Made by a program: the position numbers and the translations under genes | Shown: positions 703 through 36,734 of the stretch, piece after piece | Layout of the letters: every line of letters starts with the position of its first letter | Position numbering within the stretch: the stretch's first letter is position 1 | Notes under the pieces: model-generated | What the model was told of the DNA's origin: nothing | The model's database searches: none | The model's input: only the letters and a program-made list of their open reading frames with translations | Source of the DNA: a virus | IMG/VR virus record: IMGVR_UViG_3300019377_000001 | Location: 1-56,130 of that record | Direction: 5' to 3' (one strand) | Length of the DNA stretch: 56,130 nucleotides

Positions 703-717
703 TCGCGTAGCTCGGTA

Positions 718-855
718 CGGCAGGGCCCGGATTCGAACCGGAGTCGCCGTGCCCGGGGCCACTGCCCACGAGGGGCTTTACCCCGGTGCGCGCGCCGGGG
801 AGGGGACTCGAACCCTCGGGACCACGGTGTCTTAGGCCGCTGGACTACTCCTGCC
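718..855 (-). ncRNA. tRNA-Glu-like gene whose anticodon stem closes a 71-nt insert that contains a second T-arm-like hairpin
   Basis: Read on the minus strand. Acceptor GGCAGGA (855-849) / CCCTGCC (725-719), 6 of 7 bp. D-arm GTCC-AGCGGCCTA-AGAC. Anticodon stem CCGTG (827-823) / CACGG (751-747). Variable loop CGAC. T-arm TCCGG-TTCGAAT-CCGGG (742-726). The insert carries GAGGG-TTCGAGT-CCCCT (817-801). Confidence 0.3.
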
Positions 856-864
856 GCGCCACCA

Positions 865-1053
865 CTACACCACGCGCACGGCCCAGGCGACGAGCGCGAG
901 AACCGCGACGACGGCGACCAGGGCCAGGGCCAGGTCGAGCACGCGGAACGCCACGGCGAAGGCGAACCGCAGGATGCTGACCACCACGAGCAGCGCGCCC
1001 ATGCCGACGAACTGCAGCCAATAGATCAGCTCGTCACGGGCGGACCACGTCAC
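865..1053 (-). CDS. Small membrane protein (2 TM)
   Basis: The GTG at 1053 overlaps the upstream TGA (GTGA). Hydrophobic segments GALLVVVSILRFAFAVAF and LALVAVVAVLALVAW. TAG stop. Confidence 0.6.
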   Translation of the reverse strand: MTWSARDELIYWLQFVGMGALLVVVSILRFAFAVAFRVLDLALALVAVVAVLALVAWAVRVV

Positions 1054-1253
1054 GCGCGCTGCCGTAGCTGCTGCCGCGTGTACGCGACCAGCGCCGCGTC
1101 CTGCGGGATCAGGCCGTCGGCCTCGTCGCGCGCCCACTGTGCGCCGTTGAGCCACCACTGCACCCCCGTCCCGAGCGTGACCAGGTCCCCGTCGCGCGAC
1201 GCGACCCCACCGTGCGCCAGCTCCTCGCGGCGTTCACGGTCGGCGGTGGTCAC
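1050..1253 (-). CDS. Hypothetical protein
   Basis: 67-aa ORF with balanced composition and a GTGA overlap with the upstream gene. Confidence 0.65.
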   Translation of the reverse strand: MTTADRERREELAHGGVASRDGDLVTLGTGVQWWLNGAQWARDEADGLIPQDAALVAYTRQQLRQRA

Positions 1254-1612
1254 GAGTCTGCCCAGTCGGTCACCAGGCGCCGGCGCAGCTTCCAGCCAAG
1301 AGCCCGGAACTCGTCAGCGGTGAGCGTGAACGGGGGACACACCATGTCGCCGTCGTGTAGCTCGAACTGCGGCAACGGTGCGGCGTCGTGTCCCATCTCC
1401 CAGCCCTCTTCGACCCGGAGCCCGGTGAGCGGCGCGGTCTCGATGGCGTGGTAGTCCCACTGGTCATGCCCGTGCTCCTCGTCCAGCTCCTTGGCACGAG
1501 CCCACGCCGCGTCCCGGGTACCGAGCAGCACCTCCAGGACCTCGGTGCTCTGGAAGTCCTGGTCCTTGGTGATGTGCACGATCACGTGCGCCTGGTCGGC
1601 CGCGTCGCTCAT
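1250..1612 (-). CDS. Hypothetical acidic protein
   Basis: 120-aa ORF (MSDAADQAHVIVHITKDQDF...) with protein-like composition and an upstream GGAGGGA Shine-Dalgarno sequence (SD). Confidence 0.75.
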   Translation of the reverse strand: MSDAADQAHVIVHITKDQDFQSTEVLEVLLGTRDAAWARAKELDEEHGHDQWDYHAIETAPLTGLRVEEGWEMGHDAAPLPQFELHDGDMVCPPFTLTADEFRALGWKLRRRLVTDWADS

Positions 1613-1625
1613 GGTTCGTTCCCTC

Positions 1626-1889
1626 CTAGTCGCTCGGGTTGGGGCGCCCGAACAGCTCCTTGTGGAGGTTCTGGCAGTACCCCCACACGTCGAACGTACC
1701 GGCGTCCGCGCCGGCCTCCTGCGTCACCAGGCGGTGGCACCGGGTCAGGTCACCCTCGGTGCCCCAGCGGATCCGGGCGGCGCCCTCGCCGGTCTTCCAG
1801 TACGCCTTGAGCTGCTGGGTCGCCGCGGTGTTGGGCTCCTCGAGCGCGAGTAGCTCGCGGAGCCGGTCCCAGGTGGTGTCGTCGGTCAT
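1626..1889 (-). CDS. Hypothetical protein
   Basis: I trimmed the ORF 1626..2192 to the ATG at 1889 (MTDDTTWDRLRELL...), which follows a GGGAGGAAGC SD. The longer N-terminal extension is Arg-rich artefact. Confidence 0.7.
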   Translation of the reverse strand: MTDDTTWDRLRELLALEEPNTAATQQLKAYWKTGEGAARIRWGTEGDLTRCHRLVTQEAGADAGTFDVWGYCQNLHKELFGRPNPSD

Positions 1890-2283: not shown

Positions 2284-2291
2284 AATGTGGC

Positions 2292-2323: not shown

Positions 2324-2330
2324 GAACGAG

Positions 2331-2792
2331 CTACGGCGCCGACGGCGTCCGCGGCGCCACCACGAACCCGGGGCTCTCCCCCGCCGGCAGCAACGTCTGC
2401 TGCGTGACGGCCACCGACGCCTCCTCCTTGGTCCACCCGTTCGCCATCAGGGTCGCGACGGTCTGCGCCTGCGTGGCCTGCGCCTGCGCGACCTCGTACG
2501 GCCCCGGCTCCATCGGGGGCAGCAGCCCGTAGTTCGGCTGGGTCGGCGTGTACGCGGTGCCGAGCACACCGATCACGAACAGCACCCACGGCAGGATCTC
2601 CGCGACGGTCGCATCGACCTGCTCCCGGTACTCGGGCCACCAGATCGCGACGACGCGCTGCGCCGCGAGCGCCGCGACCGCGAGGCACACGGCGAGGATG
2701 TACAGCACGAACCGCATGCGCTGCGGGATGAGCTCGACCACGTCTGCGATCGCTCCACGTACTTGCATGCCGAACTCCTGTGTCGTCGTCAC
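2331..2792 (-). CDS. Holin-like membrane protein
   Basis: 153 aa with two hydrophobic helices (FVLYILAVCLAVAALAA and ILPWVLFVIGVLGTAY), sitting immediately downstream of the endolysin. Confidence 0.55.
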   Translation of the reverse strand: MTTTQEFGMQVRGAIADVVELIPQRMRFVLYILAVCLAVAALAAQRVVAIWWPEYREQVDATVAEILPWVLFVIGVLGTAYTPTQPNYGLLPPMEPGPYEVAQAQATQAQTVATLMANGWTKEEASVAVTQQTLLPAGESPGFVVAPRTPSAP

Positions 2793-2793: not shown

Positions 2794-3744
2794 TCAGATC
2801 CTCCCCTCGTTGAGTCGGCGCTGCAGGGCGCGGACCGTGTCCGAGGGGTTCCAGATCTCCCCGTCTACCACGTCCATGCGGAGGTCGCGCTGCAGGGCGC
2901 GGAAGTACTGCGGGCCGGCGAGGCCGTCGATGTCGCCGGTGTAGCGCTTGCGGCCGGCGAGCAGCCGCTGGTGGGCGACGATGAACCGTGACCCGCGGGC
3001 GTCGCCCGGGGACACCCACTGCCAGCCCGTGGTCAGGCCAGGGTTGGGGCCGTTCCACGCACGGGACTGCGACGACACGAGGCCGTCCACCGTGGTTCCG
3101 ATGACCTTCTGCGCCTTGCGGGTCGTCGCGGAGCCCCAGCGGCCGTCCACGGCGAGCCTCGTCGGGACCGACGGCGACGACGGCGGCGTGATCGGGTTGT
3201 CCACGAACACGGGCCCGTCGGCGTGGTACGCCCCGCGGTTCAGGTCGTCCAGCAGCGCGTACGCGTGACGGCCCGGGCACGCCGTCGCGGAGTTGGGTGC
3301 GTCGCGGTGTCCGCCGGCCACCCGTGGCGATCGCCACCAGCCCTTCGTGACGCCGTGGTGCAGCAGCCAGTCGGTCGCCTCGAGCATGGGGCGCGGGGGC
3401 TTGTTCACGTCGTAGTTCCCGACCCAGACGATGTTCGCCGTCGGGGTGTTGTACTTCGAGATCGCGGCGCCGACGCGGTCGACGGACACGCCCTCGAAGA
3501 CCAGCCCGGCGGGCGTGATCGGGAACTGGTAGCTGATGCCCTTCCCGAACCGGCTCTCACCGATGGCCTCCAGCGTGCGCACCGCGGCGTAGTCGTCGGT
3601 GAACGGCGGGATCAGGTCCGGGGCGATCGTCACGCTGTGGTGCACGTACACCTGCAGGGCGCCGACGGGCCGGGGGCCGAACCCGTCTTCGTGTCGTGCA
3701 CCCCACTCGGGGCGCTGGATGATGCGTTGCTGCTGTTGGGCCAT
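2794..3744 (-). CDS. Endolysin: N-acetylmuramoyl-L-alanine amidase (PGRP/amidase_2-like) with C-terminal peptidoglycan-binding repeats
   Basis: N-terminal VYVHHSV...GHRDAPNSATACPG amidase_2-like motifs. Two C-terminal VDGxxG...T...Q repeats of PG_binding_1 type. Confidence 0.8.
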   Translation of the reverse strand: MAQQQQRIIQRPEWGARHEDGFGPRPVGALQVYVHHSVTIAPDLIPPFTDDYAAVRTLEAIGESRFGKGISYQFPITPAGLVFEGVSVDRVGAAISKYNTPTANIVWVGNYDVNKPPRPMLEATDWLLHHGVTKGWWRSPRVAGGHRDAPNSATACPGRHAYALLDDLNRGAYHADGPVFVDNPITPPSSPSVPTRLAVDGRWGSATTRKAQKVIGTTVDGLVSSQSRAWNGPNPGLTTGWQWVSPGDARGSRFIVAHQRLLAGRKRYTGDIDGLAGPQYFRALQRDLRMDVVDGEIWNPSDTVRALQRRLNEGRI

Positions 3745-4295: not shown

Positions 4296-5225
4296 CTAGT
4301 CCCGGGCACCCAGGGCTTCGACCTCGGCCACGAACGCGGCCTGGTCGGCTGCGTAGCTCACGGCGTCGCCGCGCTCCTGGACGTCACGCGAGGCGCGGGA
4401 CCACGACGCGCGGTCGTCCATGAGCCGGGTCACGGTCCGCACCCAGGCCGTGTGGTTCTCGCGGTCGAGGAAGATCCCGTGCCCGCCCATCGCCTCCCGG
4501 ATGCCGGGGTCCTTCGACGCGACGAGCGGGATGCCGGACACGGCACCCTCGACACCGACGCGCCCGTACGTCTCGGACCGTGACGGGAAGAGCTGCACCC
4601 TGGTCTGGGCGTAGAAGTCGCGGGGCTCGAGGAAGTCCACGAGCTCGACGTTGCGCAGCCCGTTGAACAGGTGCACGCCGTTGCCGCGGCCGTCCTTCAC
4701 GACGAGGAACCGGTACGCCGGCATCGCGCGGGCCATGGTCGAGACGAGCGAGCCGCCCTTCCACGGCGACGACAGCGACAGGCTGATGCGCGTCCCGGGC
4801 GTCGTGCGGTACCGGTCCGGGTCGATCGGCGGGGGCACCACGAACCGGTGCGCGGCGAGCCGCCGGTGGCGGTCCATCGCGACCCGGGAGGGGAACCACA
4901 CGGCGTCAGCGAACCGCAGGCCCGGGTCGTCGGCCTGGTAGCTGTGCTGGCACATCAGCTTCCGGGTGCCGACGCGGCGCACGGTGTCGAGGGCGTTGCC
5001 GGGCAGCCCGGAGTTGTAGATCGCGAGGTCGTACCGCGTGCGGGGGTCGAGCTCACGGAACCGCCGGACCTTCACGCCGTCGAGGACGGCGTCCTGCGGC
5101 GCGACCGCGGTAACGAACACGTCCACGGTGTGCCCGACGGCGGCGAGGGGCTTGACGAGCTCGACCATCGTTGTTGCCCGCCCGCGGCCGTACCCGAAAC
5201 CCTGGACGACGACGGCGAGCTTCAC
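4296..5225 (-). CDS. Glycosyltransferase, GT-B fold (family 4/1-like)
   Basis: C-terminal FPSRSETYGRVGVEGAVSGIPLVAS...GIREAMGGHG, an E-x7-E type motif. The GTG at 5225 overlaps the upstream TGA. Confidence 0.8.
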   Translation of the reverse strand: MKLAVVVQGFGYGRGRATTMVELVKPLAAVGHTVDVFVTAVAPQDAVLDGVKVRRFRELDPRTRYDLAIYNSGLPGNALDTVRRVGTRKLMCQHSYQADDPGLRFADAVWFPSRVAMDRHRRLAAHRFVVPPPIDPDRYRTTPGTRISLSLSSPWKGGSLVSTMARAMPAYRFLVVKDGRGNGVHLFNGLRNVELVDFLEPRDFYAQTRVQLFPSRSETYGRVGVEGAVSGIPLVASKDPGIREAMGGHGIFLDRENHTAWVRTVTRLMDDRASWSRASRDVQERGDAVSYAADQAAFVAEVEALGARD

Positions 5226-5476
5226 TCGTCTACGACCGGGGCCTGCTCCGCCACGGAGAAGTGCATCCACATGGCCGCGGTCTGCAGCATCGTGAACGCG
5301 TACGCCTTGCCGCGGCCGTGCGGCAGCAGCGCGTCGAGCTGCACCGCGAGCTCCACGAACAGCCGGCGGATGTCGCGGTGCACGGCGGTGGTCGCGTTCG
5401 GCCCCTCGATCGTGGCCTTGTGGAACCCGAACCGGTTCTCGATCTCCTCGCGACCGATGCTGGTGTTGTCTTCCAT
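5222..5476 (-). CDS. Acb2/Tad1-hairpin-like small protein (putative cyclic-oligonucleotide sponge)
   Basis: 84 aa. RFGFHKAT...HRDIRRLFVELAVQLDALLPHGRGKAYAFTMLQTAAMWMHFSVAE fits the F-x-YH...IR...P-x-x-REK-x-x-A-x-T-x-LEEA-x-MWAN pattern of that family. AGGAG SD. Confidence 0.45.
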   Translation of the reverse strand: MEDNTSIGREEIENRFGFHKATIEGPNATTAVHRDIRRLFVELAVQLDALLPHGRGKAYAFTMLQTAAMWMHFSVAEQAPVVDE

Positions 5477-5487: not shown

Positions 5488-6231
5488 TCACACGACGGGC
5501 CATGCCGGATCGACCACCAGGTGGGCGGCCGTCAGGGTGTTTCGTCCCCCAGTCTCCATGGTGGGCCACTGCTCGATCGACACCGGCGCGCCCGCCACCT
5601 TCCCCAGCACGGTGTCAGGCAGCCCGGGCACGACCGACCCGGACACGGCCAGGCGCCCGCGGGCGTCCTCCCACGCGATCACGCGAGCTACGACCGTGGA
5701 CGTGTCCTCGTGGTACGCACGGGCCGCCTGCAGGGGCTGGCGGACATCGGCGTGCAGGGCCTGCGCGGTGAGCGCACCGGTGCGGATCACGCGGCCGTCG
5801 TCCAGCGTCGTCGTCCACGTGTGGAAGTTGCGCAGCTTCGGGTCCGGGTCGGGCGTGTACCGCTTGCACGACGTCATGTCGCCGTTCTTGTAGCAGCCCG
5901 ACCCGGCAACGTGACCGTAGATCCGGCCGTCCGGCGCGAACGTGAGCGGCGTCTGCTCCTTGGTGTCCGCGTCCCACTTCTCGAAGTGGTCCGACGGGTA
6001 CACGATCGCGGACCGGACCATCGTCGCCGCCGCGGTGATCGGTTCGTCGGCCACCGCGCGATCGGGCGAGACCAGGACCTCGGCCTCGTCCTCGCACTCC
6101 GCACACGGCTCCGTCGTCGGCTCGATCGTGACCGCTCCCCCGGCCGACGACGGGGCCGCGGTCACGGCGGCACGCTGCTCCTGCACACGCTCGATGAGCT
6201 TCGCGGCACGGATACGGGCAACGGCGTCCAT
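5488..6231 (-). CDS. Putative capsid maturation protease
   Basis: It directly follows the portal-MuF gene. The motif GHVAGSGCY...C...P...FH...DG...GALT...HA...YHEDT...V is typical of the actinophage protease family. Confidence 0.5.
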   Translation of the reverse strand: MDAVARIRAAKLIERVQEQRAAVTAAPSSAGGAVTIEPTTEPCAECEDEAEVLVSPDRAVADEPITAAATMVRSAIVYPSDHFEKWDADTKEQTPLTFAPDGRIYGHVAGSGCYKNGDMTSCKRYTPDPDPKLRNFHTWTTTLDDGRVIRTGALTAQALHADVRQPLQAARAYHEDTSTVVARVIAWEDARGRLAVSGSVVPGLPDTVLGKVAGAPVSIEQWPTMETGGRNTLTAAHLVVDPAWPVV

Positions 6232-6241
6232 TGGTCTCTCC

Positions 6242-8233
6242 TCAGGTCTGTGCGGTCACGGCGGGCTGTAGCTGGGACCACCCGGTACGTACGTTGATCA
6301 GCCGGGCGGGCACGGCGATGCACTGGCAGCCGGCGTGGTCACCCGGGAAGGCGACGAACCCGCCGGCGAACACGCTCACCCCGTCGAACAGCGCATCCTT
6401 GAGCGACAGGTGCACGGGGTGCGGGTCGGGGCCCTGGTAGAGGTGGAGCCACCGGTGGGAGTTGGGGCCGACCGGGGCGGCGAGCCCGTAGTCGCGTCGG
6501 ATGATCGCCATCGTGGCAGCCGCTAGCGCGATCCCGCTAGCGGCCTGCGTAAAATCCGACGCCTCACCCCCGCCGGCGATCGTCGCGACCTCGCGGGCCG
6601 CCTGCCACGCCTCCGAGATCCCGGTGCCGCCTTCCTGCTGGACGGCGACGGTCGCAGCTACGGCGGTCACGAACGCGGCCTGCGCGGCGGTGAGGCCCTC
6701 CTCCTCCGGCTCGGGCGGGACCTCGATGCCCATGGCGCGTAGACGCCCGTGGGCCCGCTGGATCACGCGGGTCACCTTCTCGATAGCGGCCTGCGCGACG
6801 CCCGCGATCGTGGCGTCCATGTTCGGGATGTCGCCCGTGTACAGGCGTGCGAGGTCGGCGTTCGGGACGTCGGCCGGCAGGTCGAAGTTGCGGCCCTGGG
6901 CGATGCTGCGGATCTTCGCGCCGAGCTTCTCCAGGGCCCGCTCCGCGACGTCGAGGATCAGGTCCTCCAGCGACGTGTACGCCTGCTCGTCGATGTCGGC
7001 CAGGCGCGCGCCGTCGATCGTCGGTGTCGCGGCGGCCTGCGGCTGGGACGGCTCCGCGGCGATCTGCCGGGTGTCGTCGGCCTCGACCGGTTCCGGCTCG
7101 GCGTCGCCCTCGGCCGGCACGTCGGCGCCTTCGGTGGGCTGCTGGATGCCGTCGCCCCACGCGTCCTCCGGTGCGCCGAGCTGCTCGGCGGCCCACCACG
7201 TCTGCACGATGCCGGCGACCGCGGCCTGGATGACGTCGGAGGTTGGCGGACGACGGCGCAGCAGCGGCCCGGGGTCCGGAACTACCTCGACGCGGTCCCG
7301 GTCGATCCTGGCCGCCTTGGTGATGCCCTCCGCGTACCCCTGGCCGACCGGGGCGGCGAGCGGTTCGACGTGTCCGAGCCAGTTGTCCTCGAGCGACGCG
7401 TACGCCGACCACTGGTTGGAGTCCTCGAGGCCGAGGAGCACGGACGGCGCCATGTCGAGGCCGATCGCGAGCTGCCGGATCAGGCGATCGATCCGGTCGT
7501 GCAGCTTCTCGTCCAGCGGGCCGGTGAGGTCGAGGGTCTTCCAGTGCTGGATGTACTCGGCGGGCCACCCCACCATGTTCGGCACGGCAACCGACTCGGC
7601 CTTCTCGTCCGCGAGCGGCGCGGTGACGACCTTCGCGAAGTCGTCCTCGAACTTCTTCGGGTTGGGGCCGGCGCCCTCCTTCGGGTACAGCAGCAGCATC
7701 GTCTGCGCGGTCCGGGAGCGGGCCGTAGCTCGCGCCTGTGCCCGGGTCAGGATCAGCTCGGTCGCGATGTCACGCACCGAGGCCACCGCGGAGTCAGCAC
7801 GACCCGGGATCGCCGGGTCCTCGATCATGACCTCCACGAGCACGTCGGCGGCGATCGCCTCGTCGCGCTGCACGGTGCTGATCGGGGAGTTGAGGATCTT
7901 CCACTTGCCGCCCGTGCGGACCAGGAAGTACCGGCCGACCACCTGCAGGTGGATCGCGGCCATGACGGACAGGGAGCGTAGGTCGGCGCCGAACGCCTGG
8001 CGCATCAGCTCGTCGCCCTCGGGCAGCTCTTCGCCGTCGCCCTCCACCCGCCAGTCGAGCCGGCCGACGAGCCGGGCCTGCTGGTTGACCGCGTAGTGCA
8101 CCTCGGGCACGCACCGGTAGATCCGCCAGAGGTCACCTTCGCGCAAGGCGTCCATCACGGGCCGGTCAGGGATGCGGTCGAACGATCGGACGGTCGCAGC
8201 CGTCAGTGGCTCATCCTTCGAGAACAGTCCCAT
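6242..8233 (-). CDS. Portal protein fused to a MuF/SPP1 gp7-like head morphogenesis domain
   Basis: 663 aa, downstream of the terminase. The C-terminus ...FPGDHAGCQCIAVP matches the MuF-type HxxCxC motif. Confidence 0.7.
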   Translation of the reverse strand: MGLFSKDEPLTAATVRSFDRIPDRPVMDALREGDLWRIYRCVPEVHYAVNQQARLVGRLDWRVEGDGEELPEGDELMRQAFGADLRSLSVMAAIHLQVVGRYFLVRTGGKWKILNSPISTVQRDEAIAADVLVEVMIEDPAIPGRADSAVASVRDIATELILTRAQARATARSRTAQTMLLLYPKEGAGPNPKKFEDDFAKVVTAPLADEKAESVAVPNMVGWPAEYIQHWKTLDLTGPLDEKLHDRIDRLIRQLAIGLDMAPSVLLGLEDSNQWSAYASLEDNWLGHVEPLAAPVGQGYAEGITKAARIDRDRVEVVPDPGPLLRRRPPTSDVIQAAVAGIVQTWWAAEQLGAPEDAWGDGIQQPTEGADVPAEGDAEPEPVEADDTRQIAAEPSQPQAAATPTIDGARLADIDEQAYTSLEDLILDVAERALEKLGAKIRSIAQGRNFDLPADVPNADLARLYTGDIPNMDATIAGVAQAAIEKVTRVIQRAHGRLRAMGIEVPPEPEEEGLTAAQAAFVTAVAATVAVQQEGGTGISEAWQAAREVATIAGGGEASDFTQAASGIALAAATMAIIRRDYGLAAPVGPNSHRWLHLYQGPDPHPVHLSLKDALFDGVSVFAGGFVAFPGDHAGCQCIAVPARLINVRTGWSQLQPAVTAQT

Positions 8234-8242
8234 GGGCGAATC

Positions 8243-8644
8243 CTAGGCTTCCGGGGTTCCGTCACCGATGGCCACGATCTGCGCTGTGGTGTGCCGTCCC
8301 CACTGGTTCGCGCACCCACACCCGGACCAGGAGAAGGGCCCCCACGAGCCGCGCTTCGCACCGGACTGGACCCGGTCCCCCGTCGGCAGCGGGTACTTCG
8401 TGACGCTGGTGACCGTCCGGCCGCGGTCGGTGGACCGGGCGACGTACAGGGCGTCCGCGGTGATGATCAGCCGCGACCACCGCCACAGGTCGCCGCCCCG
8501 GCGCCCGCCGCCGTCGTACCGGACGTCTACCGGGTAGAGGTCGGCGGGGCCGTTCACGGGCTTGTTCCCGGTGCGTGCACGGGTCCGTGATCGGTCGGCC
8601 GACGGGGTGAGGGTGGACTTGGTACCTATCGGGCGTGAGCGCAT
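8243..8644 (-). CDS. Hypothetical protein
   Basis: 133-aa ORF between the pyruvyl-transferase-like gene and the portal. TAG stop. Same frame as both neighbours. Confidence 0.55.
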   Translation of the reverse strand: MRSRPIGTKSTLTPSADRSRTRARTGNKPVNGPADLYPVDVRYDGGGRRGGDLWRWSRLIITADALYVARSTDRGRTVTSVTKYPLPTGDRVQSGAKRGSWGPFSWSGCGCANQWGRHTTAQIVAIGDGTPEA

Positions 8645-8653
8645 ATCGGGATG

Positions 8654-9361
8654 CTACGTCGGCAGAGATGTTGCAGCCCGCTTGAGCTGGTCGCACAGGT
8701 GGCGCCACGTGTCGCGGTCCAGCGGGGGCACCGGCCCCGGGGTCAGACACGGCCGGCCGGTGCCGAGGAAGTGGTCCTGGAACTTCAGGTTCGCGGACAC
8801 CAGGCCGTCGGTGTACGACCCGTGCCACGTCACGGGGATCCCGTACGCGTCCGCCGCGATCACCCCGTGCAGCGACGTCGTGATGATGCGTTCGCATGCT
8901 TTCATCTGGCGGACCACGCGACGCCACCCGCCGAGCACGTCGATGAACAACGCATCCGGGTACCTCGAGCGCGCCGGCGTGACGTCCACGAAGTGCGGCA
9001 TGATCCCGACCCGGTGCGTGCGCTCCACCGGCGGGTCGTACACCTCGGGCAGCAGCAGAGCCGGGTCGCCGTACACCTGCGGGACCGTAGCTCCGTCGAT
9101 GCACGACCTGGTGAGCGGGCCCCGCACGGCGAGGAACGTCGTGCCCTTCGTCGCGAACCGCCGATCGTGCTGCACCCCTGTCCCCCACACGACGTCGCCC
9201 GGGCGTAGCGCGTTCATCACCGACCCGACGGCGAGCACCTTGCCCCGCTCGTCGCGGGACACGCGCTCGAGGTCGAACCCGAGGTGCCGGAGGATCACGG
9301 GCGTCAGCGTGTCGCCGAAGTTCTTGGTGGTGGGGTCCCAGTAGGTGCGCATGGGCCCCAT
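8654..9361 (-). CDS. Polysaccharide pyruvyl transferase-like protein
   Basis: N-terminal NFGDTLTP, then ...AVRGPLTR...GDPALLLP...IITTSLHGVIAADAYGIP, the pattern of the CsaB/WcaK family. Confidence 0.6.
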   Translation of the reverse strand: MGPMRTYWDPTTKNFGDTLTPVILRHLGFDLERVSRDERGKVLAVGSVMNALRPGDVVWGTGVQHDRRFATKGTTFLAVRGPLTRSCIDGATVPQVYGDPALLLPEVYDPPVERTHRVGIMPHFVDVTPARSRYPDALFIDVLGGWRRVVRQMKACERIITTSLHGVIAADAYGIPVTWHGSYTDGLVSANLKFQDHFLGTGRPCLTPGPVPPLDRDTWRHLCDQLKRAATSLPT

Positions 9362-9499
9362 GATCGCGGACAGGGCTGGGGGCCCCGCGCTGCTGCGCGG
9401 GGCCCCACGACGGGCCGCGTAGACGAACCCGCCCTGTCGTGGTTTGGGGTGTCCGGTAAGCCACGAAATCCGGAGGCCGCTAGGCCGTGACCATCGACG

Positions 9500-12351: not shown

Positions 12352-12716
12352 CAGATCTCCTCGTCGGGGTTGTCGCGGTACGCGATGAGCTTCTCGATCA
12401 GGACCGACCGCGCGTCGTCCACGGTGACCTGGGCGCCCTTCGGGAGCCCGCCGCGGTCGAGGATGCTGTCGGCGGCCTTGAGGCGCAGGGCCTCGTTGTC
12501 GCTGGTCGCCATGATGCGCGCCAGCGTCGCGATCGCGGGGTCCACGAGCTCGAGGAGTCGGAGCTTCGCGGCGCGCTTGACCTGGGGCGCGGACCCGCCG
12601 TGCAGCCGGCAGACCGTGCCCCCCTTGATCGGGGACTTCTGGCAGGGGGTGCCGGCCCGGGTCTTCTTCCCGCAGATGGCCTTCTTGCCGCGGTTGCTCT
12701 GGTTGTGGTCGTTCAT
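12351..12716 (-). CDS. Putative terminase small subunit / zinc-ribbon DNA-binding protein
   Basis: 121 aa with CGKKTRAGTPC...CRLHGG. It sits at the head of the packaging operon. Confidence 0.4.
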   Translation of the reverse strand: MNDHNQSNRGKKAICGKKTRAGTPCQKSPIKGGTVCRLHGGSAPQVKRAAKLRLLELVDPAIATLARIMATSDNEALRLKAADSILDRGGLPKGAQVTVDDARSVLIEKLIAYRDNPDEEI

Positions 12717-23900: not shown

Positions 23901-23908
23901 GTAGCTCG

Positions 23909-27535: not shown

Positions 27536-28123
27536 TCAGGCGAGCGAGTCGAGGTACTGCGCCATGACGCGGTTGTACCGGGCGTCCTCCAGGGCGTTGT
27601 GCTCGGTGCCCTCCTGGGCCGGCATCTCGGGGTTGCCTAGCCGGTACGACTCCTGGCGCAGGTCGTTCGTCCACATCGGCACGCCGTCGGGCAGGTCGAT
27701 CATCGGGCCCCAGAGCTGCGCGAGGGCCACGTGGTCGTACGCGCCGTACCAGGCCCACAGCTCGAGGTTCCCCTGCCCCGTGTGCGCCGCGGCCCACAGG
27801 AAGTCGCGGACCTCGTTCGCGATCGACCGGTGAGGCTTCACGGCCGTGCGCGCAGGGTCGAGCTGGATGCTCGCGAGCGCCGTTCGGGTCGCGTTCGTCT
27901 GGCTGTTCAGGTAGCTCTCCAGGGCCGGCTGTGACTCAGGCGTGAGGGGCAGGTGCGGGACGACGTTCCGAACGAGCCAGTCGTGCCGCAGGATGCGGTC
28001 CCACGGGCAGTCGCTGTTGACGGCGTAGTACGCCTGTCCGTCGTCGGTGACGAGCCCGATGGAGATCAGCTCGATGGTCTTCCCGTCCTCGAGGAATTCG
28101 GTGTCATAGAACACGCGTGTCAT
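27536..28123 (-). CDS. DEDDh 3'-5' exonuclease (Rv2179c/RNase T-like)
   Basis: YDTEFLEDG... (Exo I), ...WAWYGAYDHV... (Exo II), ...HNALEDAR (Exo III, DEDDh). Confidence 0.7.
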   Translation of the reverse strand: MTRVFYDTEFLEDGKTIELISIGLVTDDGQAYYAVNSDCPWDRILRHDWLVRNVVPHLPLTPESQPALESYLNSQTNATRTALASIQLDPARTAVKPHRSIANEVRDFLWAAAHTGQGNLELWAWYGAYDHVALAQLWGPMIDLPDGVPMWTNDLRQESYRLGNPEMPAQEGTEHNALEDARYNRVMAQYLDSLA

Positions 28124-28162: not shown

Positions 28163-29110
28163 CTACGGCAGGTCCAGAACGCCCTGCTGGAGCCGGGTGC
28201 GCAGCGACAGGTCGAGGTACTCCTGCTTGAGCTCGATGCCGACGTACCGCCGGCCGTGGCGGGTCGCGGCGAGGCCGGTGGTGCCGGAGCCGCTGAACGG
28301 GTCCAGGACGACGTCGCCGGCGGCGGAGCCGGCCTGGATGCACCGCTCGGGTAGCTCGAGCGGGAACGTCGCGAAGTGGGACCCGGGGAACGGCGTTGTC
28401 GGGATGGCCCACACGTCGCCGGGGTTGCGTCCGCCGGGGTGCAGCGCGCGGGTGGCGTAGCCGCCCTTGCTGGGGTGGTCGTCGCGGTACCCGGAGCGGC
28501 CCTCGTGGCGGGCGCCGCGGGTGTCCTGCGGTTCGCGGATCGCGTCGAGGTCGAACTCGTAGCTCGCGCTCTTGGTGAGCAGGAACAGGTGCTCGTGGCG
28601 GCCGGAGAGCCGGTCGGTCACGGACTCGGGCATGGCGTTGGTCTTGTGCCAGATGATCTCGTTGCGCAGGATCCAGCCGTCGTCCTGCAGGGCGAACGCG
28701 ACCCGCCATGGGATGCCGAGGAGGTTCTTCTCGGGGCGGTCGAAGTCGCGCCGGCGCATCGCGGCCCGTTGCATCTTCTGCACGCGGCCCGGGTTGCTGA
28801 GCCGGGACTTGTCCCAGCCGTTGTCGCTGCCGCGCTGCTTGGTGCTGTAGCTGTCTCCGAGGTTGAGCCAGAGGGTGCCGTCGTCGGCCAGCACGCGGTG
28901 CACCTCGCGGATCACGTCCACGAGGCCGGCGACGAACGCGGCCGGGGAGTCCTCGGAGCCGAGTTGTCCGTCCACGCCGTAGTCGCGGAGCCCGTAGTAC
29001 GGCGGGGAGGTGACGACGCACTGGACGCTGGCGGGCTCGAGCTGGGCCAGGACCGTGGCGGCGTCGCCGTGGTGGAGGGTGATGTGGTCGTCGGCGTAGT
29101 AGGGGGTCAC
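28163..29110 (-). CDS. DNA methyltransferase, SPPY type (N4-cytosine or N6-adenine, beta class)
   Basis: VVTSPPYYGLRDY catalytic motif and C-terminal VLDPFSGSGTTG SAM motif. GTG start at 29110. Confidence 0.8.
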   Translation of the reverse strand: MTPYYADDHITLHHGDAATVLAQLEPASVQCVVTSPPYYGLRDYGVDGQLGSEDSPAAFVAGLVDVIREVHRVLADDGTLWLNLGDSYSTKQRGSDNGWDKSRLSNPGRVQKMQRAAMRRRDFDRPEKNLLGIPWRVAFALQDDGWILRNEIIWHKTNAMPESVTDRLSGRHEHLFLLTKSASYEFDLDAIREPQDTRGARHEGRSGYRDDHPSKGGYATRALHPGGRNPGDVWAIPTTPFPGSHFATFPLELPERCIQAGSAAGDVVLDPFSGSGTTGLAATRHGRRYVGIELKQEYLDLSLRTRLQQGVLDLP

Positions 29111-29866: not shown

Positions 29867-31072
29867 TCACGCCATGGCGGCCAGGACGGCGTCCCGGTCG
29901 TTGTACGCGGTGCGCAGCTTCACGTCGTGCCCGGCGGCGAGGAGCGCTTTGTGCACGGCGTCGCCGGTTGCAGTCCGGTTGCTCTGCAGGAAGGCCCGCA
30001 CGACATCGCGGCGCTCCGCGATGCTCGCGCGCTGTGCAGGTGCAATGTGCACGTGCGGGCGGGGCAGGTCTGCAACGATCGCGGCGGCCTCACGCTGCAC
30101 AGCCTCTGCAACCCGGGCGGCGTACGCCTCGTCCTGCACAACGTCGGGCTGTGCAGGCGGGGCCTGCACCGTTGCAACCTGGGTTGCATGTGCAACGGCC
30201 TGCACGCCGTCGTGCACGTGCACCTCGGGTGCAGGTGCAACCGGCTGCACACTGGTCTGCACGTGCACCTCGGGTGCAGGTGCAACGGGTGCTGCAAGTG
30301 CAGGTGCAGGTGCACCGGTGGTGAGGTCGGCCTGCATCCGCTGTGCAGTCCGTGCAGCGATCGTCGCGACGGACACCCGGACCTCCTCGCCGTAGCGGGC
30401 TGACTCGAGCCAGGCGCCGAGCTGGGCGTCGCGCTCGTCCTGGGGGACGTGCTTCGCGATCGCTCGGGCGGCCCGTCGTGCCCGCTGTGCGGCCAGCGGG
30501 GCGAGCCAGGTGCCGTTCGCCAGGCCCTCGGCCTCGCCCGCCTTGAAGAACGCGTACAGGAGGCCGTGACGGCGCTCCGCGGCACGGTGGGCGCGGTGCC
30601 GCCCGCCGCAGAACAGGTGGATCACCAGCTCCCACAGCCCGGCGGCGAGGAACGGGGCGAACAGGCGCCACCCGGCGGACGCCAGGGCGGCCGACAGGCT
30701 GAGGTCCCCGGACAGGTACTCCATGACCTCGAACAGGGCGCCGAACACGCCGGAGACGCCCGACAGGACCCAGGTCGCGGTGCGGAACAGGGCGGTCGGC
30801 TGCATGCGGTACGCCTCGATGAACGTCGCCGCGGCGACGACGGCGAGCGAGAGCTCGATGACGCCGCCGAACACGTAGCTCGTCACCTCGGAGAGCTGCA
30901 TGACGTTGCGGGCGAACGCGACGCCGCCGATGTACGCGGCGCCGTTCGCGACGACGGCGACGAGCAGCACGGCCGCGGTCAGGGCGATCAGGAGCCGGCG
31001 GATCACGGGCGGCTCGGGGTCGGTGGCGAGATGTGCAGGTGCAACGGGCGTGGTGGTGTGGTCGGTGTGCAC
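29867..31072 (-). CDS. Multi-pass membrane protein, DUF2637-like (as in actinomycete conjugative elements), with a repetitive Ala/Pro/Val/His/Gln C-terminal half
   Basis: 401 aa with a GTG start. About 4 N-terminal TM helices, then ...VAPAPEVHVQTSVQP VAPAPEVHVHDGVQA... encoded by the TGCA array. Confidence 0.75.
   Translation of the reverse strand: MHTDHTTTPVAPAHLATDPEPPVIRRLLIALTAAVLLVAVVANGAAYIGGVAFARNVMQLSEVTSYVFGGVIELSLAVVAAATFIEAYRMQPTALFRTATWVLSGVSGVFGALFEVMEYLSGDLSLSAALASAGWRLFAPFLAAGLWELVIHLFCGGRHRAHRAAERRHGLLYAFFKAGEAEGLANGTWLAPLAAQRARRAARAIAKHVPQDERDAQLGAWLESARYGEEVRVSVATIAARTAQRMQADLTTGAPAPALAAPVAPAPEVHVQTSVQPVAPAPEVHVHDGVQAVAHATQVATVQAPPAQPDVVQDEAYAARVAEAVQREAAAIVADLPRPHVHIAPAQRASIAERRDVVRAFLQSNRTATGDAVHKALLAAGHDVKLRTAYNDRDAVLAAMA
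29941..30370 (+). repeat. TGCA-hexamer array 1 (inside the 3' half of gene 29867..31072)
   Basis: I counted about 32 TGCA in about 420 nt by hand. GTGCAGGTGCA(A/G/C) occurs at 30034, 30229, 30274, 30298 and 30304. A 29-bp perfect direct repeat lies at 30213-30241 and 30258-30286. Confidence 0.85.
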
Positions 31073-32249: not shown

Positions 32250-32597
32250 TCAGTGGTGGCGCTGCTCGCGGATGCGGGCCTTCTTGCCGCGTAGCTCGCG
32301 CAGGTAGTAGAGCTTCGCGCGGCGCACGACGCCGCGGCGCACGACCTCGATGGACTCGATCGACGGCGTGTGGAGCGGGAACTTCCGCTCGACGCCGGCG
32401 CCGAAGCTGATCTTGCGGACGGTGAACGTCTCACCGACGCCGCGGCCGTGCCGCGCGATGACGACGCCCTGGAACGCCTGGACGCGGGTCCGTTCGCCCT
32501 CGGTGACCTTGACGTTCACGCGGACCGTGTCGCCGGCCCGGAAGTCGGGGATGTCGGTGCGCATCGAGTCGGTGTCGATGGTGTCGAGCTTCTGCAT
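32250..32597 (-). CDS. rplS: Ribosomal protein bL19 homologue
   Basis: Full-length match to the L19 pattern: ...[18 protein letters not shown].+.[10 protein letters not shown]....[35 protein letters not shown]. Confidence 0.85.
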
Positions 32598-34262: not shown

Positions 34263-34504
34263 GGTCGTTCTCCTCGCATCGTCGCGGTCAGGCACTCGCC
34301 GCACATCTGCTCGCCGTCGCCGTTGAACCATCCCAGCGCGCGGCCGGTCACGAGCTGCAGCGGGGTGTAGTCGTAGTCATCGGCCACGGTCCGCGCACGG
34401 CCGCAGTCGGCGCACGTGATGCCCGGTGCCATCGTGGACGCCGCGCCGTGTGCGTCGAGGTCCACGGGCTGCTGGTCGGCGGCCTGCGCGGGGGTATCGC
34501 TCAC
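34259..34504 (-). CDS. Zinc-ribbon protein
   Basis: I trimmed the ORF to the GTG at 34504 (GTGA overlap). CADCG...CGEC. Confidence 0.5.
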   Translation of the reverse strand: MSDTPAQAADQQPVDLDAHGAASTMAPGITCADCGRARTVADDYDYTPLQLVTGRALGWFNGDGEQMCGECLTATMRGERP

Positions 34505-34908
34505 GAGTCGAGCCGCACGACGGCGTAGCTCGACCCGGTCAGCGCGGCGGCGCGGCGGTAGTACGGCGACTGCTGCACATCGCTCATCACGGCCCAGTCG
34601 TGGCCGTCGGCCTGCGCGAGCACCTGCGCCACCTCGGCTGTCGTGAGGTTGGACGCCTCCGGCATGTTCAGCGCCGGATCGCGCCACAGCTCGGCGCCGA
34701 TCCCGATGCGCTCCGCGACGTACCGCAGGATCCGTACCCGGGTGTCGTAGGTCTGGAGCTGCAGGATGACGAGGATCGCCTCCATGGCCTGCAGCTCGGG
34801 GTCGCCCTGCGTCACGGTGATGTTGATGGTCGTGGTGCCGTCGCTCTCAGCGATGCGCTCCCCGTGGCCCTCGACGGTGGCAGCGTCCGGTGTGGTGTTT
34901 TCCTGCAT
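34501..34908 (-). CDS. Hypothetical protein
   Basis: I trimmed the ORF to the ATG at 34908, after a CAGGAGGAAC SD. 135 aa. Confidence 0.65.
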   Translation of the reverse strand: MQENTTPDAATVEGHGERIAESDGTTTINITVTQGDPELQAMEAILVILQLQTYDTRVRILRYVAERIGIGAELWRDPALNMPEASNLTTAEVAQVLAQADGHDWAVMSDVQQSPYYRRAAALTGSSYAVVRLDS

Positions 34909-34958
34909 GGTTCCTCCTGTGAGTGGTGCGGTCCAACACGGTAGCGGGTGTGGGCTGA

Positions 34959-35339
34959 TCAGAACAGCGTTCCCTGTTCCGGCACGTCGTCGGGCCACGA
35001 CCCGGCGGCGGTGTAGTCCGTGTCCTCGAGGTCCCACACCTCGCCCGTGTCGAGGTCGGTGACCTCGTCCAGGTGGCAGCCGGGGCAGCGGCGCACGACG
35101 AGCCGGACGTGCGGGTACAGGTCCGCGACGCCGGCGCCCGGCATGAGCGTGCCGACGGCGCGTAGCTCGCTGTCGCGGATCCACCCGCACCCCGTGCAGG
35201 CCCAGTGGTCGGCCGGGACGTGGAACACGAGCGTCGTGCGGCCCGCGAGGCCGGCCTCGTCGGTCCAGTCCGACCACTGCACCGGCCGCCCGTCCCACAG
35301 CGGCGGCAGGTCGTGTGGGCGGGCGGGCGGCGTCACCAC
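34959..35339 (-). CDS. Zinc-ribbon protein
   Basis: I trimmed the ORF to the GTG at 35339, 1 nt after the upstream stop. CTGCG...CPGC. Confidence 0.5.
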   Translation of the reverse strand: MVTPPARPHDLPPLWDGRPVQWSDWTDEAGLAGRTTLVFHVPADHWACTGCGWIRDSELRAVGTLMPGAGVADLYPHVRLVVRRCPGCHLDEVTDLDTGEVWDLEDTDYTAAGSWPDDVPEQGTLF

Positions 35340-35340
35340 G

Positions 35341-35502
35341 TCAGGATGCCTCGTCCTCGCGTGCCGCGACGGCGAGCTGCCGGGCGGCGTCGTCCCAGCG
35401 GAGGTTCTGCGCCCGGGCGTGGTCGGACACGAGCGCGACGATCTCATCCCAGCCCATGGGCGCGAGCTCGCGGCGCAGCGTGGTGAAGGTCCCGGGGTTC
35501 AC
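35341..35502 (-). CDS. Hypothetical small protein (53 aa)
   Basis: The GTG at 35502 overlaps the TGA of the initiator gene. Confidence 0.45.
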   Translation of the reverse strand: MNPGTFTTLRRELAPMGWDEIVALVSDHARAQNLRWDDAARQLAVAAREDEAS

Positions 35503-36734
35503 AGGGCACCGTCCTGGGTAGCGCGCGTGGCGGCGACGTCGAGCACGGTGCCGATCGTCGTCGTGCGGCGGCCGGCACCGGCAGGCAGCGAGCGCCGGAC
35601 GGCGAGGACAGCCTCGCGGCCGGCGCCCGGCGAGCGGTCCACGGAGGACGCGGTGATCGCGATCTCCTTGGCGGCGCCGGTGCCTGACGGCGTGGTGTCG
35701 AGGTTCGGGTTGCACGCGGGGCAGCGGCGGACGTACTCGCGGCCCTCGTGGTCGTTCGCGACGGCGAGCCGAGTGTCCCGGTCGCACCCGCCGCACCACC
35801 GCGGGGTGGTGCGGCCCGGGGGAGGCCCGGGGATGGCCTGGCCGAACGTCTCGGCGGTGCGCCACTGGGCGATCCGCTCGGACAGCCGGGAGCCGGTGTG
35901 GAGCGTGAGGATCAGGCCGTCGGGGTTCGTAGCTCCGGTGGCGTCCACGAGCCAGGTGCGGAACCGTGCGGCCTCGTCGCGGTTGAGCATCATCGCCTCC
36001 AGGACCTGGTCGGGGGTGGCGCGCGTAGCGTCGCCACGAGCACCGGGATCCGCCGTCGTTGCAGCAGCGTCGCGCGCATCACCTGAGGTGATGCTGCTGC
36101 TGGAAGTCTCCACGGGGGATGCAGTAGCCGCGCTACGCGCGGCACTGCGGGGAGGGTCATGGGGAGGGTTACTGGGGAGGGTTGGGTGACTTGTAGTCAC
36201 CTCGTGCGGTGACTCGTAGTCACCCCGGCCCTGACTCGTAGTCAGCCCGTCGTCGTCCGCGGGGTGACTCGTAGTCACCCCGTCGGCGCGCGGACGCTTC
36301 ACGCCCTTGTCGACGCGCTGGTTCTTCTCGGGGGCGGGGGTGTGCTCGGGGCGGTCCTGCGGAGTCAGCGGGGGCCGGCCACGGCCGGCACGCCACACGT
36401 TGACCGACAGCTCGACGTCGTCGCCGTTGTAGCTCTTCTCGGGACGGAAGAACGAGTACGGCACCTGCAGGTCGTACACGACGGGGCGGCGGTCGACGGG
36501 GATCATCCGTGCCGAGGTCTGGTCGCCGCGGCGAAGGAGGCCGCGCTCCTCGAGCGTGGCGATCCGGCGCTGGACGGTGCGCTCGGCAAGGCGGGTGCGC
36601 TGCGAGATGGTCGTGACGCTGAGGAACGAGTTGGTCCCGTCCTGGTCGGCGGCCTCGGCCATCGCGACCAGCACGGCCCACTCGTTGACGTCCGCGACGG
36701 GGGCCGACTTCACGGCCCAGAGGATCTGCTCCAC
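35499..36734 (-). CDS. Winged-helix replication-initiator-like protein (lambda O analogue) carrying its own iterons
   Basis: N-terminal wHTH (FLSVTTISQRTRLAERTVQRRIATLEERGLL). The repeated peptide GVTTSHP/GLTTSQ/EVTTSHP is encoded by the iterons. C-terminal CGGC...CPAC. Confidence 0.6.
   Translation of the reverse strand: MEQILWAVKSAPVADVNEWAVLVAMAEAADQDGTNSFLSVTTISQRTRLAERTVQRRIATLEERGLLRRGDQTSARMIPVDRRPVVYDLQVPYSFFRPEKSYNGDDVELSVNVWRAGRGRPPLTPQDRPEHTPAPEKNQRVDKGVKRPRADGVTTSHPADDDGLTTSQGRGDYESPHEVTTSHPTLPSNPPHDPPRSAARSAATASPVETSSSSITSGDARDAAATTADPGARGDATRATPDQVLEAMMLNRDEAARFRTWLVDATGATNPDGLILTLHTGSRLSERIAQWRTAETFGQAIPGPPPGRTTPRWCGGCDRDTRLAVANDHEGREYVRRCPACNPNLDTTPSGTGAAKEIAITASSVDRSPGAGREAVLAVRRSLPAGAGRRTTTIGTVLDVAATRATQDGAL
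36149..36278. repeat. Origin-like repeat block: 3 x GGGGAGGGT plus 4 x inverted-repeat iterons GTGACT-CGT-AGTCAC
   Basis: 9-mers at 36149, 36161 and 36174. Iterons at 36186-36200, 36209-36223, 36231-36245 (CTGACT..AGTCAG) and 36264-36278. Iteron spacing is 23, 22 and 33 bp. Confidence 0.6.

Follow-up and report, generated by a model that had tools for sequence, protein, structure and literature searches.

The phage genome and its GTAGCTC sites

The window analyzed here is IMG/VR record IMGVR_UViG_3300019377_000001 in full, a stretch of 56,130 bp with 70.5% GC, and the element in question is the heptamer GTAGCTC, which occurs 33 times on its plus strand and 7 times on its minus strand. An open reading frame (ORF) crosses the window ends, and L096 and L097, in which this phage was assembled independently, show an identical join; hence the window represents the complete genome of the phage, closed into a circle. 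That ORF (55656-56130 continuing through 3-212, plus strand) is methyltransferase-like, with weak Methyltransf_23/25 matches, and the start of the assembly is arbitrary. Genes were mapped with our own calls, based on GC content at third codon positions (GC3) and on codon usage, together with PHROG and Pfam, and they lie on the minus strand unless stated otherwise (Table 1). The site patterns were compared among metagenomic loci that carry labels such as L142 and L146, with orientation always given in terms of the window.

From base composition, 2.9 plus-strand and 2.65 minus-strand copies are expected, and the roughly tenfold enrichment proposed in a first-pass annotation of this DNA holds against that figure. 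Such a zero-order null is too weak, because about 85% of the window's genes share one strand. Shuffling synonymous codons within genes gave 8.84 ± 1.88 plus-strand copies (maximum 17 in 2000 shuffles) and 3.26 minus-strand copies, and a synonymous shuffle that also preserved dinucleotides gave 11.96 ± 2.01 plus-strand copies (maximum 17 in 200 shuffles), with 3.3-3.6 expected on the minus strand under both. Over these nulls the excess is about 3- to 4-fold, with Poisson P values of 4e-10 (codon) and 4e-7 (dinucleotide), and the annotation's placing of the signal at the DNA level thus survives codon-aware and dinucleotide-aware nulls. Its list of 33 plus-strand copies was exact, every position being right, as were all the reading frames and codons that it gave; on the other strand it counted 6 copies, missing the one at 40021.

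All words were then ranked against the codon shuffle, and GTAGCT (51 vs. 15.4 expected) came first at k = 6, GTAGCTC (33 vs. 8.9) at k = 7 and GTAGCTCG (23 vs. 4.0) at k = 8. Two other high-ranking words, CGAGCTCG and CGCGAGC, fell towards expectation under the dinucleotide-preserving null, and their excess is a codon-context effect. C stands at position -1 in 21 of the 33 sites and G at position +1 in 23, and the 9-mer CGTAGCTCG is distributed 15:4 between the plus and minus strands. Among the 21 one-mismatch neighbors of GTAGCTC, only GTAGCTG was enriched, weakly, and none was depleted in a comparison of enriched with non-enriched genomes (see below), which argues for selection on GTAGCTC itself and not for escape from an avoided site.

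Skew alone is common in this genome, where dozens of words are as skewed as GTAGCTC. Many words containing TA are skewed because most genes lie on the minus strand, and GTAG, for example, stands at 196:82 vs. 190:80 expected. The iteron half-site CGTAGTC, considered as a signal, has a ratio of 14:0, but codon usage fully explains it (12.2:0.5 expected). We also rejected a tRNA origin: GTAGCTC resembles a tRNA D-arm, but the single tRNA holds no site. That tRNA, found by ARAGORN at 792-868 (minus strand) between the lysis-side genes and the capsid module, is a tRNA-Leu with anticodon AAG and does not decode the CTA codons made by the motif. Another word, CGCGAGC, has ratios in window orientation of 20:1 (L094) and 41:19 (window), but since the dinucleotide-preserving shuffle removes most of its excess, it seems to reflect codon-pair context (CTC GCG) and not a signal.

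Table 1. Genes, repeats and GTAGCTC sites of the window
Feature	Coordinates	Strand	Remarks
Endolysin	2794-3744	-	PHROG/Pfam, codon-based calls
Glycosyltransferase (GT4)	4296-5225	-	PHROG/Pfam, codon-based calls
Acb2-like (Acb2/Tad1-like anti-CBASS sponge gene)	5222-5476	-	PHROG/Pfam, codon-based calls
MuF-like	5488-6231	-	PHROG/Pfam, codon-based calls
Portal	6242-8233	-	PHROG/Pfam, codon-based calls
TerL	9500-11047	-	PHROG/Pfam, codon-based calls
ParB-like domain fused to beta-class N6/N4 DNA methyltransferase	11044-12351	-	PHROG/Pfam
Stealth-like	13019-13954	-	PHROG/Pfam, codon-based calls
Many small early genes	about 13-19 kb	-	codon-based calls
Three-gene operon including FtsK/SpoIIIE-like ATPase	19271-22323	+	PHROG/Pfam
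FtsK/SpoIIIE-like translocase	20119-22323	+	PHROG/Pfam; candidate motif reader, disfavored
Further early genes, the last being the lambda O-like initiator	up to 36734	-	codon-based calls, PHROG/Pfam
Replication initiator (Rep), lambda O-like, winged-helix N-terminus	35499-36734	-	PHROG/Pfam
Four 22-nt iterons (GGGTGACTCGTAGTCACCCCGT)	36184-36283		inside Rep initiator gene; right boundary of polar domain
Block with PDDEXK exonuclease and Erf-like annealing protein	37012-42533	+	PHROG/Pfam
Recombination module: PDDEXK / exo VIII-like exonuclease and Erf-like annealing protein	40623-42091	+	
Tail, connector and capsid genes	42725-55519	-	PHROG/Pfam
GTAGCTC	707-713	+	intergenic
GTAGCTC	1357-1363	+	gene reading GAG CTA C
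GTAGCTC	1850-1856	+	gene reading GAG CTA C
GTAGCTC	4353-4359	+	AGC TAC, glycosyltransferase gene
GTAGCTC	7725-7731	+	CGA GCT ACG, portal gene; relatives CGG GCT / CGC GCC
GTAGCTC	9087-9093	+	GGA GCT ACG; relative GGG GCC
GTAGCTC	9525-9531	+	CGA GCT ACG, TerL
GTAGCTC	10611-10617	+	CGA GCT ACG, TerL
GTAGCTC	13675-13681	+	GAG CTA C; relatives CTG
GTAGCTC	13918-13924	+	GAG CTA CGG; relatives GAG CTG / CTT
GTAGCTC	14472-14478	+	GAG CTA CGN; common to L142
GTAGCTC	16565-16571	+	AGC TAC; common to L142
GTAGCTC	17523-17529	+	AGC TAC
GTAGCTC	18202-18208	+	AGC TAC
GTAGCTC	19370-19376	+	GTA GCT C, plus-strand gene
GTAGCTC	21427-21433	+	GTA GCT C, plus-strand FtsK-like gene; common to L142
GTAGCTC	21970-21976	+	GTA GCT C, plus-strand FtsK-like gene; common to L142
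GTAGCTC	23901-23907	+	intergenic, 1 nt past stop codon
GTAGCTC	25871-25877	+	
GTAGCTC	26475-26481	+	
GTAGCTC	27911-27917	+	Rv2179c-like exonuclease gene
GTAGCTC	28351-28357	+	methyltransferase gene
GTAGCTC	28559-28565	+	methyltransferase gene
GTAGCTC	30875-30881	+	
GTAGCTC	32291-32297	+	GAG CTA CGN
GTAGCTC	34525-34531	+	
GTAGCTC	35162-35168	+	
GTAGCTC	35929-35935	+	Rep initiator gene
GTAGCTC	36429-36435	+	Rep initiator gene; right edge of polar domain
GTAGCTC	39194-39200	+	overlaps stop codon of minus-strand gene 39199-39471
GTAGCTC	42539-42545	+	convergent intergenic region
GTAGCTC	46612-46618	+	tape-measure gene
GTAGCTC	50192-50198	+	connector gene
Reverse copy (GAGCTAC on plus strand)	2328-2334	-	intergenic
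Reverse copy	5685-5691	-	GTA GCT C in minus-strand gene
Reverse copy	12917-12923	-	
Reverse copy	40021-40027	-	
Reverse copy	45748-45754	-	
Reverse copy	51193-51199	-	gene junction
Reverse copy	52123-52129	-	intergenic

Polarity, occupancy and spacing

From 707 to 36435, the sites form a polar domain with 29 copies on the plus strand and 3 on the minus strand, at a mean spacing of 1276 bp. The ratio changes from 29:3 left of 36.8 kb to 4:4 right of it (Fisher P = 0.02), and pooled over three genomes it is 44:6 vs. 8:8 (P = 0.003). The first-pass annotation had reported no skew right of 36.5 kb, which stands although its count of 4 vs. 3 becomes 4 vs. 4, and had confined the enrichment to one side of the iterons. 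That restriction applies to the polarity alone; the enrichment extends to both sides and to both orientations. Copies in either orientation exceed codon expectation 10- to 25-fold between 36.8 and 55.6 kb and likewise in the L228 and L146 capsid-tail modules (in L228, 4 vs. 0.42 for plus and 3 vs. 0.12 for minus), and plus and minus copies are about equal in number there. The stretch from 40.0 kb via the junction to 5.7 kb holds six of the window's seven reverse copies; to judge from gene layouts rather than alignment, the one at 51193-51199 appears to correspond to a reverse copy at L146:15446. The architecture is thus that of a long polar domain (0.7-36.4 kb) and a sparser mixed domain, and it appears to recur in L142's genome and in L146.

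Occupancy was scored over every place where the protein sequence permits the word by synonymous codon choice. In 1-36.8 kb the plus-strand word occupies 27 of 52 such places and the minus-strand word 2 of 36 (P = 2e-6 for the difference between orientations), and in 36.8-55.6 kb the figures are 2 of 15 and 3 of 20. The plus-strand word in 1-36.8 kb is found in each of three frames, as GAG CTA C (9/21), xGA GCT ACx (5/8) and xxG AGC TAC (10/17), and CTA, GCT, CGA and GTA each make up about 3-4% of their codon families, in line with the annotation's remark that rare codons are used in all frames. The configuration that requires two rare codons is used at 5 of 8 places where it gives the plus-strand word and at 2 of 25 where it gives the minus-strand word (P = 0.004). 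Similarly, the plus-strand operon (19.3-22.3 kb), where GTA GCT C makes the plus-strand word, has it at 3 of 4 places, and minus-strand genes, where it makes the minus-strand word, at 3 of 37 (P = 0.007). Codon cost does not account for the polarity, and these two configuration tests indicate that it tracks the DNA strand and not transcription, as the annotation had maintained.

These results bear on whether the sites could be polar roadblocks similar to stoperators, at which a phage protein would stop leftward RNA polymerase or another machine across the early, packaging and lysis genes. The stoperators of Cluster A mycobacteriophages are numerous and asymmetric, lie mainly in one orientation to transcription, are lineage-specific and co-evolve with the repressor, and similar systems exist in other actinophages (PMC6550527, PMC9283540). 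A tally from the site table makes 31 of the 40 GTAGCTC sites "sense" relative to local transcription, as such roadblocks would be. However, the three sites of the plus-strand operon keep their DNA-strand orientation, and the capsid-tail genes, transcribed in the same direction, lack polarity. The core spans only 7-9 bp and 29 of the 33 sites are inside genes, with no association with gene starts or stops (10 of 29 within 45 bp vs. 7.2 expected; P = 0.16). The proteins scanned, a set that excluded many small ORFs, gave no match to an integrase or repressor family. We consider a stoperator-like role quite improbable.

Spacing within the polar domain is evener than chance (coefficient of variation 0.68 vs. 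0.95 for random placement; P about 0.02-0.035). Successive 6-kb segments contain 4, 4, 5, 5, 5 and 5 sites, and dispersion tests give P = 0.002-0.01.

At about 36.8 kb, the polar domain ends where the iterons lie, transcription diverges and the GC skew sharply changes sign, the plus strand being G-rich over 12-37 kb and C-rich over 37-52 kb. Values range from +0.05 to +0.14 over 12-37 kb and from -0.10 to -0.14 over 37-43 kb; the coding strand is C-rich in early genes, whichever side of 36.8 kb they lie on, and in tail genes it is G-rich as usual. The cumulative GC skew peaks at the iteron region, which under bacterial rules corresponds to a terminus, not an origin. Each 22-nt iteron is a small palindrome (GTGACT CGT AGTCAC), and three tandem copies of GGGGAGGGT(N3) at 36150-36183 adjoin the four iterons. 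The iterons suggest an origin at about 36.8 kb; for GTAGCTC as a replication or priming signal, one of the roles listed by the first-pass annotation, we found no specific support.

Gain of the word in one sub-lineage

Comparison with related phages, also proposed by the annotation, revealed that the enrichment is lineage-specific. Plus and minus copies number 10:2 in 18 kb of L142 (FtsK-like protein 85% identical), 4:3 in 17 kb of L228 (the capsid-tail part of L142's contig), 6:3 in 16 kb of L146 (portal 81%) and 2:0 in 5 kb of L147 (methyltransferase module 93%). The enriched set therefore comprises the window and three related contigs, L142 and L228 counting as one, and the word is absent or rare in relatives that are 80-88% identical. 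L143 and L094, which are one contig (FtsK 84%, portal 81%), have 2:0 and 3:0 in 22 and 20 kb; L144, L001 and L229, one phage type, have 1:0, 0:0 and 0:0; L006 has 0:0; and L092, with a portal 88% identical, has 1:0 in 13 kb. Locus-by-locus codon shuffles agree with this division. Pooled, the enriched genomes (window, L142, L146 and L228) contain 53 plus and 15 minus copies in 108 kb, and the non-enriched ones (L143, L094, L144, L001, L229, L006 and L092) 6 and 0 in 121 kb; in L229, 22.6 kb of sequence lack even the 6-mer core. At k = 5, 6 and 7, GTAGCTC ranks first among the words that differ between the two sets. Because the relatives share codon usage and context biases, this comparison is the strongest control that we have.

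More widely, the three highest densities in a set of 112 loci from actinophages and prophages (0.55-0.64 per kb; median 0.05) are those of the window phage and L142. A possible excess in the unrelated phages L050, L012 and L055 reaches P values of only about 0.03-0.07, and in about 160 kb of Streptomyces loci (L082-L091), prophage regions from species that may be irrelevant, the word is at the level of base composition. Unbiased scans of L094, L001, L006, L143 and L144 for another private motif yielded only weak candidates. GCTCGCG/CGCGAGC is largely codon context and is not significant when 16,384 words are allowed for; nor is TGGTTCG, whose ratio over about 35 kb of the L143/L094 contig is 10:0, a density no higher than elsewhere.

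Where the window has CTA, GCT, CGA and GGA, ordinary codons (such as GAG CTG, CGC GCC and GGG GCC) stand at the orthologous positions of the non-enriched relatives. The sites arose by synonymous and non-synonymous changes, and the changes inferred at orthologous sites include transitions, transversions and double changes. Four sites are common to the window and L142 and others are private to each, which indicates that turnover is continuing. In the FtsK-like gene of L142, at 11849-11870, GTAGCTC and GAGCTAC form an inverted pair 8 nt apart, of which the window has the first only. The window, L142 and L143 are about equidistant, with 81-86% nucleotide identity, and the portal closest to the window's belongs to a non-enriched genome, L092; the trait thus does not follow the phylogeny of the portal and FtsK genes.

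These observations leave little room for a functionless word that arose as a by-product of escape from restriction, biased codon context or mutation at a hotspot. Such an origin has some basis in the complete avoidance of CAGCTG (0 vs. about 20 expected in the window), the related TAGCTG being modestly raised in the window and in most genomes that avoid CAGCTG, and in the 2-fold codon-context effects that are common in this genome. But no one-mismatch neighbor is depleted, the precursor words at orthologous sites are diverse, the excess survives the dinucleotide-preserving shuffle, copy numbers are 0-3 per 20 kb in relatives whose codon usage is the same, and L143/L094 also avoids CAGCTG but lacks GTAGCTC. 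We regard a by-product as largely refuted already, with hardly any likelihood left to it. The strand bias known for Type III restriction (T7/EcoP15I type) was rejected as well, given a 3- to 11-fold excess with sites gained via rare codons, and the annotation's view that it would not explain the enrichment stands.

In our best explanation, GTAGCTC is a strand-specific recognition word at the DNA level, driven towards saturation in one sub-lineage by positive selection. Taken together, the excess, the polarity, the comparative gain and the lack of a depleted neighbor amount to positive selection for one exact heptamer, still under way in a narrow set of genomes.

Restriction-site avoidance also varies within the family. 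CAGCTG is missing from L142 and L146 but occurs 19 times vs. 23 expected in L144/L001; CTCGAG is absent from L144/L001 and L006 and normal in the window; GAGCTC is absent from L006; and AGGCCT is absent or nearly so in all sets, with one copy in L142 and L146 together. L143/L094 matches the window in avoiding CAGCTG and not CTCGAG. These profiles suggest different hosts or restriction-modification encounters within this phage family.

The family itself has dozens of metagenomic members. A megablast search with window positions 6000-12500 gave no cultured-phage match, and in tblastn searches against cultured actinophages the capsid and FtsK proteins matched at only about 25-31% identity, the matches being mainly Gordonia phages for the capsid (about 30%) and Streptomyces phage Gilgamesh for FtsK. 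A scan of viral contigs with the window's exonuclease found no close relative. Sugar-type enzymes in the window (a GT4 glycosyltransferase, a polysaccharide pyruvyl transferase and a Stealth-like phosphotransferase, in regions 4296-5476, 8654-9361 and 13019-13954) could act in cell wall or DNA modification; L142's genome has its sugar genes in a different cluster arrangement. The TerL gene contains one in-frame TAG at 10652-10654 (minus strand; ...EASLAT*FSGDV...), with both resulting ORFs in the same frame. The split into 131 and 379 residues was also called in the independent assembly L096, and TerL is intact in relatives (494-499 residues). The codon could be a tolerated or suppressed amber codon, a site of read-through or the mark of a defective population.

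Candidate readers and known recognition words

If the word is read by a protein, one candidate is the phage's own FtsK/TraB-like translocase (20119-22323), for which GTAGCTC would serve like an FtsK-orienting polar sequence (KOPS) or a SpoIIIE recognition sequence (SRS), as the first-pass annotation proposed, or like a TraB recognition sequence (TRS), directing DNA pumping towards or away from 36.5 kb. The protein is an FtsK/SpoIIIE-type ATPase anchored in the membrane, its conserved C-terminal domain (about 90 residues) being the only part of the motor that could plausibly read DNA, and the motif is polar and evenly spread, with reverse copies mostly beyond 36.5 kb. The translocase is, however, conserved across the whole family, and its C-terminal domain does not co-vary with the motif, hardly differing between the window, enriched L142 and non-enriched L143, which disfavors a KOPS role. 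Furthermore, Pfam detected no FtsK gamma domain, the C-terminal 130 residues had no sequence match in the PDB, and no comparable polar word emerged in the relatives scanned. This role is very doubtful.

Alternatively, GTAGCTC could be the target of a phage-encoded, strand-specific DNA enzyme that nicks virion DNA or modifies one strand, encoded by a sub-lineage-specific gene for which the fusion of a ParB-like nuclease domain to a methyltransferase (11044-12351) is a candidate. One precedent is Pseudomonas phage tf, where a single strand carries all 14 nick sites (TACTRTGMC) together with every related site, nicks being unevenly spread in such genomes (PMC3517423). An exchangeable gene would also be expected to leave motif status independent of portal and FtsK phylogeny, as is the case. 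The fusion module tracks the motif in part only: one type is present in the window, L146 and L147 (all enriched), another, unrelated type in L094/L143, and none in L144/L001 (non-enriched), but the window type is also found, at 83% identity, in L148, whose 5 kb hold no motif. The reverse strand, which bears no sites in tf, is enriched too (15 copies vs. 0 in relatives), so that the sites are not confined to one strand (33 on plus, 7 on minus), and no reason is known for driving nick or modification sites to about 50% occupancy via rare codons. On balance, we think such an enzyme unlikely.

The fusion itself, compared between window 11044-12351, L094:5454-7256 and L146:844-2127, joins a ParB-like N-terminal domain (about 170 residues, about 80% identical) to methyltransferase modules that are unrelated in different relatives, and the module swap sits directly upstream of the terminase gene, the usual place of the small terminase subunit. 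Other genes were rejected as determinants of the motif: the second methyltransferase (28163-29110) is absent at that locus in L142, and the region of the Rec module is syntenic in the window and in non-enriched L229. The genes common only to the window and L142, those for a 173-residue protein (17016-17537) and the Rv2179c-like exonuclease, gave no functional lead. A host factor is a possible reader.

The best reading, though one that we hold only tentatively, is that GTAGCTC acts as a Chi-like signal for a processive end-processing helicase-nuclease, a role that the first-pass annotation had named and that fits best while still unproven. An exact asymmetric word at about one per 1.3 kb, evenly spread in a polar domain with reverse copies towards the other side, gained by point mutation against codon preference and present or absent among close relatives, is best matched by Chi as known from phages that rely on the host helicase-nuclease or have to survive it. 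By the rule established for RecBCD and AddAB, a plus-strand word is read by an enzyme moving leftward from an end to its right, and the polarity would then place an end right of 36.4 kb. Our inference as to the reader protein, its direction of travel and the DNA end runs as follows. A host helicase-nuclease of the AdnAB or RecBCD class would act on phage DNA ends, entering at an end right of about 36.5 kb, which might be the tail produced by rolling-circle replication at the iteron origin, or else an end used for packaging or injection that lies within 36.5-42.7 kb. It would track leftward on the 3'-ended plus strand, meet 5'-GTAGCTC-3' from its 3' side, and there be switched from degradation to a harmless or recombination-promoting mode. 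If recognition at each site were less than certain, many evenly spread sites of the same orientation would be favored, and the other end would be served by the reverse sites, which are fewer and mostly located in the capsid-tail and lysis part.

Several points weigh against this reading. In lambdoid phages, high Chi density goes with the lack of an own Rec module and nuclease inhibitor (PMC12315714), whereas the window phage departs from that pattern in having its own exonuclease and Erf-like annealing protein (40623-42091), which are also found in non-enriched L229. An AT-richer word that needs rare codons is unlikely to be frequent in a 70% GC chromosome. L143/L094 has the window's restriction-avoidance profile without the motif, which also speaks against any host factor as reader. 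GC skew and iterons would point in opposite ways at 36.8 kb, the one to a terminus and the other to an origin. Finally, no Chi is known for AdnAB, which has been suggested to be Chi-independent (PMC5314763). Our caution about a Chi-like role reflects the phage's own Rec module, the improbability of such a word in a 70% GC chromosome, the lack of a known AdnAB Chi, and ends and a host that are so far putative. About a quarter of the probability lies with a reader or mechanism outside those considered here.

AdnAB is the main recombination helicase-nuclease of Actinobacteria, including mycobacteria and Streptomyces, and its response to Chi is an open question (PMC5314763), for which a heptamer found at about half of the positions that could encode it, in one orientation, provides a concrete candidate sequence. 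It may be, although we would not wager on it, that in GTAGCTC a first counterpart of Chi has come to light for an actinobacterial end-processing helicase-nuclease (AdnAB or actinobacterial RecBCD), through a phage lineage selected to bear it near saturation in the protective orientation, or that it forms, with a phage-encoded reader, a private "self" mark steering a phage-borne nuclease or motor. If the reader is instead a phage protein such as a nickase, modifying enzyme or roadblock, the word is still a clean natural example of selection on a DNA word over codon preference, and the close relatives with and without it are a ready comparison set.

Polar genome-wide recognition words are a known kind of element, but neither this clade nor this sequence has a described system of this type. 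The nick sites of T5, phiKMV-like phages and tf are similar in being 7-9 nt words on nearly one physical strand regardless of gene orientation, in tens of copies or fewer, lineage-specific and unevenly placed. GTAGCTC differs in its 33 and 7 copies, in the enrichment of the other strand and in selection for ever more copies, and it is known here from sequence alone. KOPS (FtsK), SRS (SpoIIIE) and TRS/clt (Streptomyces TraB) share with it a polar word of 7-8 bp and an FtsK/TraB-like motor in the same genome. The polarity of KOPS-type words mirrors around one point, whereas the second domain of the window is mixed, the putative DNA-reading end of its motor does not vary with the motif, and no gamma domain was detected. 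Stoperators are about 13 bp long and lie mostly between genes. They resemble GTAGCTC as numerous asymmetric actinophage sites with one dominant orientation and a motif that differs between close relatives, but they follow the direction of transcription and belong to repressor-based immunity, whereas GTAGCTC, with its shorter core, lies mostly inside genes and follows the DNA strand across an inverted operon.

Chi-rich phages (E. coli phage LLS, P1 and Pseudomonas phage MD8), on which Bobay 2013 is reportedly a source alongside Zheng et al. 2025, are the closest parallel. GTAGCTC is not a known Chi, the host of the window phage is a presumed actinobacterium, and recognition by a nuclease is only proposed; the window phage and its motif-less relatives alike keep an exonuclease and Erf module, and known Chi words use common codons whereas GTAGCTC needs rare ones. 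The likenesses are a short asymmetric word that is the most over-represented of its length and is not explained by codon usage, at about one copy per 1.2-1.9 kb, uneven along the genome and with close relatives that have none. Phage LLS has 23 Chi sites, one per 1.86 kb, clustered towards the entry end, Chi being its most frequent octamer, and lambda has no Chi (PMC12315714). In lambda red gam Chi+ mutants, Chi sites arise by single base changes under selection (as cited in PMC12315714). The strong orientation bias is likewise shared, at 20:3 in LLS, 32:0 in Pseudomonas phage MD8 (PMC12315714) and 33:7 in the window phage.

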